Source: an uncultured delta proteobacterium
GTDB lineage: Bacteria; Myxococcota; Myxococcia; Myxococcales; Myxococcaceae
Length of the DNA: 64,000 nt
NCBI GenBank assembly: GCA_963796055.1
Contig: CAWCKH010000004.1
Location: 2,368,001 to 2,432,000, forward strand
Direction of reading: 5' to 3'
Shown: positions 21,001-24,000 of the stretch, piece after piece
Position numbering within the stretch: the first letter of the stretch is position 1
How the letters are laid out: each line of letters opens with the position of its first letter
Made by a program: the position numbers

Positions 21001-24000
21001 CGGGTGGCAGGATCCGCAGATCGGCCTGGAGCCCGCTCTTGAGACGGGCGGTGCACTTGGTCGGGCCAGTCGCGGTCAGTGCCTCCACTTCGGGCGCGTC
21101 CCGGAACGCGCGGATGACCTCGTCCGCGCTCGCGGCCGAGACCAGGAGATCGATGTCTCCGATCGTCTCCCGTCTGCGACGGATGCTGCCGGCCACCTCG
21201 GCGGCGCGGACGTGCGGCACCTTGCGCAGCCGCTCCGCAATCGACTCCGCGGTCGCCAGCGCTCGATGGAGGGGAACTCTGCCCTTGCGTGCCTGGTATC
21301 GACCCAGCGCGAGCAGGATCGCCGCCACCCTCTTGGCTCCCATCCGGGGAAGCCTCTCCATCGACCCGTCCCGGCACGCCTTCTCCAGGGCCGCGAGCTC
21401 CTTCACGTGCAGTCGCTTCCAGGCCAGAGAAGCCGTCTTCGGACCGATTCCCTCCACCCTCAAGAGCTCCAGCACCCCCGGGGGGACCTTCGCCAGCAGC
21501 TGGTCGTGCTCGCGAAAGCGACCGGTGCTCAGCAGCTCCTCGATGTGCGCGGCGATGCGTTCGCCGATCGAGGGAAGCTCGGTCAGCTTCCCCTCTCGCC
21601 ACAGCTCGGAGACGGGGGTGGGGAGGAGATCCACGATCTGTGCGGCCTGCCGATACGCGCGTGCCTTGAAAGCGTTTCCGCCGGTCAGCTCGAGCAGATC
21701 GGCCACCTCGGCGAGGACCTGGGCAACGTCGGCGTTCTCCATCGACGGAGGCCTCCATCTCTCGGCCCTGCAAACACGGCACCATCCGGATGCGGGTCCC
21801 GGTCAGTGGAGTGGCAGTGCAGGATCTGCGCAGGGTACCGCCCTCGACGGCTCAGCTCGCCGGGGAGGGTTTCTTGCACGTCTTCCGACGGAACCCTCAC
21901 CCGGGAGGTCCGCAATGCAGGTGCCTCTCCAAATCAGTCATCTTCACGCTGCTCCCTCGGAACCACTCGACAAGCTCATCCGGGAGCGAGCGGCCGAGCT
22001 GGAGCAGTTCTATCCACGCATTACCGGCTGCCATGTCTGGATCGAGCACCCCGGTCAGCACCATCGAAGAGGCAAGGGCGCGCACTTTCGGGTGCGCATC
22101 GAGCTCTCCGTTCCCAGCAAGAAGCTCGTCGTCTCCCGGGACCCGGCGGCTCATCGGCCCAACGAGGATGTGTACCTGGCGACGAGCGAGGCCTTTCACG
22201 AGATGCGCCGGCAGCTCCAGGATTACGCGCGCCTGCAACGTGGCGACGTGAAGGCCAGCATCCGGCCTCCGCATGCCCGAGTGGCGCGGCTGCATCCCGA
22301 AGAGGGCTTCGGGTTTCTGGAGACTGCCGACGGGCGCGAGATCTACTTCCATCGTGCCAGCGTGCTGGGCGGTGGATTCGATCGGCTCACCGTCGGGAGC
22401 GAGGTTCGGTTCTCCGAGGAGCCCGGTGAGAAGGGTCCACAAGCGAGCTCGGTTCAGCTGGCGGGGGAGGCCCACGCGCCCGGGGATGAACCGGGGAGCT
22501 GAAGCGAGCCTCCACATCGCCCCAGCGCGGCGCGCCAGCGGCCACCGCCCGTCATCACTTCATCGGGTGAGCACGGCGCCCCGCAGAGCCTTCGAGGGGA
22601 AGAGGGTGCACCCCTTGAGGCCCTTTCTGTTCGCCAGGTCGAAGAGGGGTTCCACCCCGCTGCTCACGTTGCCGGCCAGAAGGCTGATGGTCCGGGTCCC
22701 GCTGGAGGGGCGTGGGCCGCGTAGGAGGCCTGACTCCCGGAGCGGGTCGACGATGGGGCGGGGGATTCCCTGATGAGTGCTGCGCGCGCTGGCCGGAGTG
22801 CCGCGCCCTCCCTGCTCGCTGCCGGTACATCTCGAGGATCTCCTCATCCGTGGTCGCGTCCTGCGGCCCCTTGTCCGGGCGCCAGCGGCCGGTGAAGCGC
22901 GGGAACCGCAGGGCGAGCCCCATCCCCTCGGGAAGCTCCGCCCGGCCCGCGGTGTGTGTCGGGCTGCGGGTGATCTCCCCGCCGAGCACCTCCAGAACCA
23001 CCACCGGTTCGAACCAGACGTCGGCCTTCAAGCTCCAGTCCAATCGAGGATCGGGTTCCGCTCGCTCGTATCGGCGCATCCGTCGCGGAAGCGCGGCCAG
23101 CTCCTCGTCGCTGAACCCTGTTCCGCACTTGCAGACCGTGCGAAAGACGTCGCTTCGCGGATCGTAGGAGGCCAGGAGAAGTGCACCGTACGTGCCGGCT
23201 CGTCGACCCTTCCCGTGGAGTGCCCCCACCACCACCAGGTCGAGCGGTTCCTTCATCTCGGCCCGGTATTCCCGCTTGAGCTTGATCCACTGCCAGCCCC
23301 GGGCCCCGGCGCGGTACGTCCCCTCGGCGTCCTTGCAGACCAGGCCTTCACATCCAGCGCGGAGCGCTTGATGAAAGAACGCGTCGAGCTCCTCGGGCGT
23401 GTGAGCCTCGCGGCTGGTGGCGAGGCGAACCTCATTCCCGAGGACCAGCAGACGCTCGAGCTCTCTACGCCGGATCCGGAGCGGACTCGAGGTGAGGTCC
23501 TTGCCGTCGACCAGCAGCACGTCGAAGAGGAACAAGACCGTCGGGATCCGCTCCACGGCCTCGGCGACGCCATGCTTCCGTCGCCGCGGCATCAGCTGCT
23601 GGAAGGGGAGCAACCTCCCCGTCTTCCGGTCGACGGCCACGACCTCGCCCTCGACGATCAGCTGTCTCGCTCCAAGTGAGCGGCGGGCCGCATCCACGAC
23701 GTCCGGGTACTGCTCGGTGACCCTCTCCAGACGTCGGGAGATGAGCTCGACGTGCTCGCCGTTGCGATGGATCTGGAGCCGTTCGCCGTCGTACTTGTAC
23801 TCGGCAATGCAGCGATTGCCGAGCTTGGCGACGATGTCCTCCACGCTGTACAGGCGCTCGGCGAGCATCGGACGGATGGGCTTGTCGACCGTGGCTCGGA
23901 TCTCCTCCAGCGCCCGTGGCCCCCGCTCCGCAAGGGCCCTCGCCGCGGAGGCGAGATTCTGCGGTCAAGTTGTAGGCCCGCTCCGCGTTCGCCGGCGGTG

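Follow-up and report, generated by a model that had tools for sequence, protein, structure and literature searches.

A myxobacterial fusion of a hibernation factor to a cold-shock domain is a further member of the HPFcold class and lies in a patchy stress-gene island

The 64,000 nt of an uncultured myxobacterium analysed here (the window) contain a gene whose product joins the ribosome-binding domain of HPF/RaiA proteins to a cold-shock domain (CSD). The first-pass annotation proposed that this fusion represents an unstudied architectural class of hibernation factors, which raises the question of whether the class is indeed new and of what the protein may do in its host. The open reading frame starts with an ATG at position 21915, has no internal stops and ends with a TGA at 22502. 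Its 195-residue product, named P0001, scored above the Pfam cut-off for both domains (38.3 bits against 23.7 for Ribosomal_S30AE at residues 6-106; 45.4 bits against 27 for CSD at residues 123-182). The fusion itself is therefore real. The features of the gene are as follows.

21904..21909, plus strand: Shine-Dalgarno-like GGAGGT, 5 nt before the start codon (sequence)
21915..22502, plus strand: gene for P0001, 195 aa (ORF, Pfam and PDB match)
21930..22232, plus strand: HPF/RaiA ribosome-binding domain PF02482, residues 6-106 (Pfam, PDB alignment and model)
22281..22460, plus strand: cold-shock domain PF00313, residues 123-182, with R125, F134, Y144 and RLTVG at 157-161 (Pfam and PDB alignment)

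A search of PDB sequences aligned P0001 with chain 9 of entry 9T0Z (query residues 1-180 to chain residues 6-178, E 2e-30); gaps were few, and none fell in the linker or the CSD. The 26 other matches covered the CSD only, the second-best match overall having an E-value of 2.5e-10. Entries 9T0Z and 9TZE are structures of CBU_0020 from Coxiella burnetii, the type protein of the PF02482-PF00313 architecture that Stuart et al. named HPFcold in a paper on doxycycline (Nat Commun 2026;17:7049, PMC13392368; preprint 10.1101/2025.11.08.686982). The first-pass annotation had taken that paper not to deal with such a protein, but its text defines HPFcold and shows it on the 70S ribosome. The inclusion rule given there is PF02482 followed by PF00313, both above the Pfam gathering threshold, and the accompanying phylogeny takes in Deltaproteobacteria, Nitrospirota and others. 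Independently, Chan et al. (10.1101/2025.11.04.686544) described HPF-Csp chimeras that lack a dimerisation domain, occur alongside a canonical HPF, lie at variable loci and have spread horizontally. In the literature searched, the term HPFcold was found solely in the work of Stuart et al. (further sources, cited here without assignment to single facts, are PMC5309233, PMC6514570, PMC13004131 and PMC4766238). The proposal of an unstudied class thus has to be abandoned: P0001 is an ordinary further member of a class already named, solved and surveyed, and its value as a discovery is small. That the fusion is widespread was borne out by the detection of at least 550 relatives in 599 pattern-matched contig stretches.

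An AlphaFold2 model of P0001, built from a 60-sequence alignment, had a mean pLDDT of 81.3 and a pTM of 0.53; since the latter is so low, the orientation of the two domains is not predicted. Foldseek matched the N-terminal half of the model to RaiA (8rd8_D, TMt 0.85) and the C-terminal half to cold-shock proteins (TMt 0.82-0.86). Entry 9T0Z was not among the Foldseek matches, its release being probably later than the date of the library. The HPF domain contains an insertion in the beta2-beta3 loop that is also present in CBU_0020.

In cryo-EM of CBU_0020 on the 70S ribosome, the HPF domain occupies the 30S decoding centre and the CSD lies at the mRNA exit, bound to the 16S anti-Shine-Dalgarno (anti-SD) and held by bS21 and uS7, which together with the rRNA of one 30S form a pincer; the protein occupies the mRNA path, and conservation concentrates on the anti-SD face (PMC13392368). 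The rRNA contacts listed in the supplement of that paper are Y142 (with U1534), F132 and R123 (with C1535), R177, and K155 of KLEVG, the helix-40 motif. When these were placed on P0001 by hand counting along the 9T0Z alignment, all three anti-SD contacts were found to be kept (Y144 for Y142, F134 for F132, R125 for R123). Three of the four named rRNA contacts are thereby conserved, the position of R177 being occupied by S179. The equivalent of KLEVG is RLTVG (157-161), in which the basic R157 stands for K155 and the Glu is replaced by Thr. Conservation was assessed in a homologue set consisting of the best 80 of at least 550 relatives (hereafter the best 80), found with six sequence patterns taken from P0001; values for residues within those patterns are inflated for that reason, and this includes Y144, present in all of the best 80. 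The column of R177 contains Thr in 68, Ser in 10 and Val in two of the best 80. With Thr or Ser in 78 of them, R177, which forms an rRNA bridge in the Coxiella protein, looks like a trait of that branch and not one that defines the family.

PF02482 had exactly three matches in the host genome: P0001 and two proteins of 121 and 118 aa, in agreement with the earlier description of a third HPF paralogue beside two short ones. The gene for the 121-aa protein precedes a PTS EIIA gene, and the 118-aa protein is its paralogue. The ten closest named relatives of the 121-aa protein (81-89% identical; seven from Myxococcaceae, one from Myxococcota and two from delta proteobacteria) are all 119-122 aa long, which indicates that the host is Myxococcaceae-like and that its canonical HPF is truly short. 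The dimerisation domain of long HPFs (PF16321) had no match on P0001, as already noted in the first-pass annotation, or elsewhere in the 98.5% complete genome, while the control search matched in eight of 14 genomes; a search for RMF in the same genome was likewise negative, with a control match in one genome of 14. The host carries bS21 and a canonical 16S 3′ end with its anti-SD. It also has two standalone Csps, so the HPF-CSD fusion is not required as the Csp of the cell. The baeRF families 2 and 3 (PF18845 and PF18844) were not found in the genome; matches to PF18854/PF10116 (two Host_attach genes) lie on contigs other than that of P0001.

Considering this evidence, P0001 very likely serves as an accessory factor for 70S hibernation, blocking the tRNA/mRNA cleft while its CSD shields the 16S 3′ end. 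By analogy with the Coxiella structure, from which ribosome binding is carried over, the N-terminal domain would occupy the 30S tRNA/mRNA cleft and prevent the entry of tRNA; the CSD, brought to the mRNA exit by the short linker, may hold the anti-SD through R125, F134 and Y144. The CSD would then shield the 16S 3′ end from RNases, so that ribosomes would be stored as protected monomers. This protection is inferred for the Coxiella member too, its authors naming a knockout as future work (PMC13392368). We further infer that P0001 is induced by stress together with its surrounding gene island, possibly through sigma-54; the Coxiella gene is reported to be induced 10.5-fold towards the dormant form. 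The first-pass annotation had foreseen a protein in the decoding site with its CSD on 16S rRNA, silencing 70S ribosomes without 100S dimers, as is published for the Coxiella member. Its other suggestion, a message kept on the sleeping ribosome, does not agree with a protein that fills the mRNA path and whose CSD binds the anti-SD.

P0001 and the Coxiella protein share the order of the domains, a mass of about 20 kDa, the ungapped linker and CSD, the loop insertion, the three anti-SD contacts and a KLEVG-like motif, and both hosts have a short HPF but neither a long HPF nor RMF. P0001 differs in the Ser at R177, in RLTVG and in the absence of the linker His. The myxobacterium that carries it is free-living and has two short HPFs and two standalone Csps, and the gene is part of a patchy stress island. 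HPFlong, HPFshort with RMF, and RaiA share the N-terminal PF02482 fold with P0001 but either drive 100S dimerisation or lack a second domain. Without a visible 100S route, as in Coxiella, the host fits a monomer-protecting role for HPFcold, and such a role matters here because neither the dimerisation domain of long HPFs nor RMF was seen. P0001 is thus a usable member of the class for knockout and protection assays, in a lineage without a known 100S pathway.

The gene lies in an island of about 14-36 kb with a GC content of 0.676, compared with 0.72-0.73 in the flanks; on rough gene calls, GC3 is 0.836 in the island (20 genes) and 0.928 in the flanks (25 genes). The following features were recognised around it.

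16179..17990, plus strand: two-CBS protein, phosphoribosyltransferase and dienelactone-hydrolase-like alpha/beta hydrolase (Pfam)
18028..19616, minus strand: M50 peptidase-CBS protein and second two-CBS protein (Pfam)
19988..21742, minus strand: PolX-PHP, divergent from the HPFcold gene (Pfam; arrangement repeated in relatives G006, G010 and G003)
21769..21784, minus strand: sigma-54-type site, five of eight positions, facing the divergent polX (motif scan)
21863..21878, plus strand: weak sigma-54-type GG-N10-GC site of the HPFcold gene, four of the eight other consensus positions (spacing kept in three kin copies)
22554..22697, minus strand: ribonucleotide reductase relic, 3′ part (whole in G010; running to the contig end in G006)
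22741..24532, minus strand: ATP-dependent DNA ligase, whose frame shifts near 23957 in the present assembly (Pfam; one G010 contig has it intact at 584 aa)
24752..25243, plus strand: HSP20 (Pfam; 7-of-8 sigma-54-type site at 24690)
25301..26200, plus strand: PRPP synthase-like protein (Pfam)
27002..28618, plus strand: GroEL paralogue (Pfam)
30115..30768, plus strand: triple-BON protein (Pfam; 6-of-8 sigma-54-type site at 30058)
31683..33116, minus strand: RtcB RNA ligase (Pfam)
33127..33540, minus strand: archease (Pfam)

Pfam thus agrees with the neighbours listed in the first-pass annotation (PolX, HSP20, PRPP synthase, GroEL, BON, RtcB and archease). The ligase gene named there is present but split by its frameshift, which contigs from four DNA runs of one study did not cover and which may be a lesion or an assembly error. 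The reductase deletion is spanned by short identical contigs of the same four runs, which are not independent. Reductase and ligase are both whole in a genome of the same genus. The island has part of an ATP synthase beta subunit at its left edge (14346-15050; some 95 aa, 63% to the copy in the genome). Two further proteins are encoded inside it on the minus strand, a 152-aa helical protein without a Pfam match (15485-15940) and a 79-aa Cys-rich protein with a weak YHS match (26234-26470).

The gene order polX / HPFcold / reductase / ligase / hsp20 is kept in kin, and near-full-length HPFcold homologues were found on four plasmids. Full-length HPFcold was present in five of the 60 relatives searched and in two of 12 genomes within the genus, several of the genomes being incomplete; the copy of the same-genus G003 is broken. 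These data fit a horizontally moved, partly decaying and accessory island within which HPFcold is still conserved. Together with the variable locus and the coexisting canonical HPF, patchiness and plasmids agree with the chimeras of Chan et al., although, unlike those, the window has no Balon-like gene beside HPFcold. In G010, contigs C61 and C62 (loci L097 and L098) carry two diverged polX-HPFcold-reductase-ligase-hsp20 blocks (dS 0.40) in one bin, through either duplication or the presence of two strains. More clusters of CBS, USP, HSP20, Host_attach and PCMT/esterase genes were seen in G000 on contigs C7, C3 (about 600-630 kb), C5 (about 180-210 kb) and C2 (about 215 kb); C7 also holds a frame-split copy (92-95%) of the second CBS gene of the window.

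The decay of the island could mean that P0001, while HPFcold by descent, is now a passenger that works poorly or lacks expression in this strain; we regard this as unlikely. Of 69 conserved columns, 10 hold a non-consensus residue in P0001 (homologue mean, 5.9; nine of the best 80 have as many), the residues lost including linker His115 and helix-2 Arg91 (each present in 73 of the best 80). A passenger might be expected to show such changes, but many of the odd residues are common to kin and are therefore older than this strain. Likewise, the reductase relic, the frameshifted ligase, the ATP-synthase fragment, the weak sigma-54-type site of the gene itself and the low count within the genus suit a passenger, but the HPFcold frame and its Shine-Dalgarno sequence are intact. 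Compared with three same-genus copies, dN/dS was 0.109 (the closest copy), 0.134 and 0.148, and below 0.2 in each domain; the branch leading to P0001 carries six amino-acid against 16 synonymous changes. P0001 is under purifying selection.

An accessory 70S hibernation factor might also use its CSD mainly away from the anti-SD, to chaperone RNA or to hold mRNA at or near the parked ribosome, but this is very improbable. The Csp fold and RNP-like aromatic motifs of the CSD would suit such a task, and two of the contact positions are variable (position 125 is R in 25, K in 29 and E in 15 of the best 80; position 134 is F in 52), but the solved member fills the mRNA route with conservation on the anti-SD face, the CSD of P0001 is acidic (pI 5.5), and the host already has its two ordinary Csps. 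Least probable of all is a CSD that substitutes for the long-HPF tail to form 100S ribosomes: no other 100S factor was seen in the host genome and the Coxiella authors allow for CSD dimerisation lost in preparation, but their particles show no dimers and the CSD is pincered on a single 30S (PMC13392368).

To return to P0001 as a probable 70S-protecting factor, its genomic setting was compared across phyla with representative queries on 80 loci (those of the best 80), amounting to 1.14 Mb, many of them short. CBS proteins occurred in 21 of the 80 loci, USP and PRT in 14 each, a tRNA-editing domain in 13, HSP20 and RtcB in 10 each, archease and FtsH in nine each, LonC in eight, DUF2267 in seven, the hydrolase in six, BON in five, PolX in four and NAPRTase in three, compared with 0-1.2 places per family expected from the gene density of the host. 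At least one of 15 stress families was present in 49 of the 80 loci and at least three in 21, although the 15 families were picked from these same loci and kin among them are not independent. Around canonical HPF, the same families were found in none of 10 loci, a control that represents a single conserved synteny. GroEL (two of the 80) and the catalytic part of the ligase (none) did not recur. In the 'dormancy and repair island' of the first-pass annotation, the repair label is weak, since the ligase is broken in the window and its catalytic part was seen near none of the 80 homologues. In the literature searched, no paper was found that describes this neighbourhood together with HPFcold, although the operon figures and supplements of Chan et al. 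may cover it.

Several loci show particular arrangements. A standalone aminoacyl-tRNA editing (YbaK-like) gene lies near HPFcold in the 13 loci mentioned (e.g. L054:9143-9625); the host genome had no match to that query. In five of the 80 loci (L007, L016, L019, L032 and L082), a CBS-pair gene follows HPFcold at 4-71 bp, on the same strand in four and on the opposite strand in L082. Two planctomycete loci (L012:9315-9983 and L034:10949-11761) carry a baeRF (Balon-like) gene right beside HPFcold; baeRF accounted for two of 57 neighbour proteins scanned from homologous loci.

A parallel to this setting is RafH (mycobacterial Rv0079 and its M. smegmatis orthologue; PMC10799931), a dual-domain accessory HPF that hibernates 70S monomers and covers the anti-SD. 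The dormancy genes with which it is grouped encode RtcB, HspX, a phosphoribosyltransferase, a B12 reductase and a metalloprotease. RafH differs in that its linker covers the anti-SD, its C-terminal domain is of the HPF-long type instead of a cold-shock domain, and its induction by hypoxia occurs via DosR (PMC10799931). A review assigns RafH, HspX, RtcB, B12 reductase, phosphoribosyltransferase and Rip3 to the DosR regulon and notes that environmental bacteria conserve these genes as a set. The genes around HPFcold may resemble the DosR set in RtcB, HSP20, PRT, reductase, metalloprotease, USP and an accessory HPF, a likeness at the family level only. In addition, Rv2630, Rv2626c and Rv0573c are presumably archease, a CBS pair and NAPRTase, respectively. 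Promoter motifs may point to sigma-54 rather than a DosR-type regulator.

A wider reading, tentative and as a whole rather doubtful, is that a mobile dormancy kit shared across phyla and parallel to the DosR regulon stores its ribosomes by means of HPFcold, with HPFcold in place of RafH, sigma-54 in place of DosR, and an anti-SD shield that is detachable, as the N-domain-only sisters described below would suggest. The kit would comprise CBS pairs, USPs, PRT, the hydrolase, HSP20, RtcB-archease, the reductase, NAPRTase and an erythromycin-esterase-like protein, and the two-CBS proteins, often encoded directly behind HPFcold, might act in bacteria as co-hibernation factors akin to archaeal Sri/Dri/Hib. 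Archaeal chains of the latter type, including 9ZNF, were among the top PDB matches of the CBS proteins of the window. Their assignment as Sri-type factors was not adopted and is kept as a lead: they have two CBS repeats versus four, and repeat targets inflate whole-sequence E-values. The Sri paper places most bacterial matches outside its clades.

Sigma-54-type sites were scanned within 200 nt upstream of genes, with at least six of eight positions besides GG-N10-GC matching the sigma-54 consensus. Such a motif precedes 12 of the 80 HPFcold genes of the best 80, compared with 0.61 in shuffles (maximum 3) and five of 80 on the opposite strand; of 645 other genes in these loci, 47 have it upstream too. 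In the window, it is found before hsp20 and the BON gene. Control of HPFcold by sigma-54 is plausible from these motifs, but was rejected as a firm claim, since the site of the gene itself matches at only four of eight positions and the motif precedes those 47 other genes. The recurrent stress-gene setting and possible sigma-54 control provide a testable idea of when HPFcold acts.

Finally, seven relatives encode HPFs of 109-130 aa that are of the same type as the N-domain of HPFcold (40-61% identity with P0001) and have no CSD.

L102:10191-10574, L103:9878-10258, L104:3997-4326, L105:9592-9918, L106:9627-9959, L108:9674-10003 and L109:8724-9113: N-domain-only HPFs

As 26 of the 51 branches were open in a quick tree of the N-domain, we do not place fusion and loss in an order. 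The N-domain-only HPF of G028 retains the RGDVK linker, which suggests that a CSD was lost. In G021 (L103:9510-10258), a separate, ordinary csp gene lies about 160 bp downstream of the N-domain-only HPF gene on the same strand, a split form of the two-domain arrangement.
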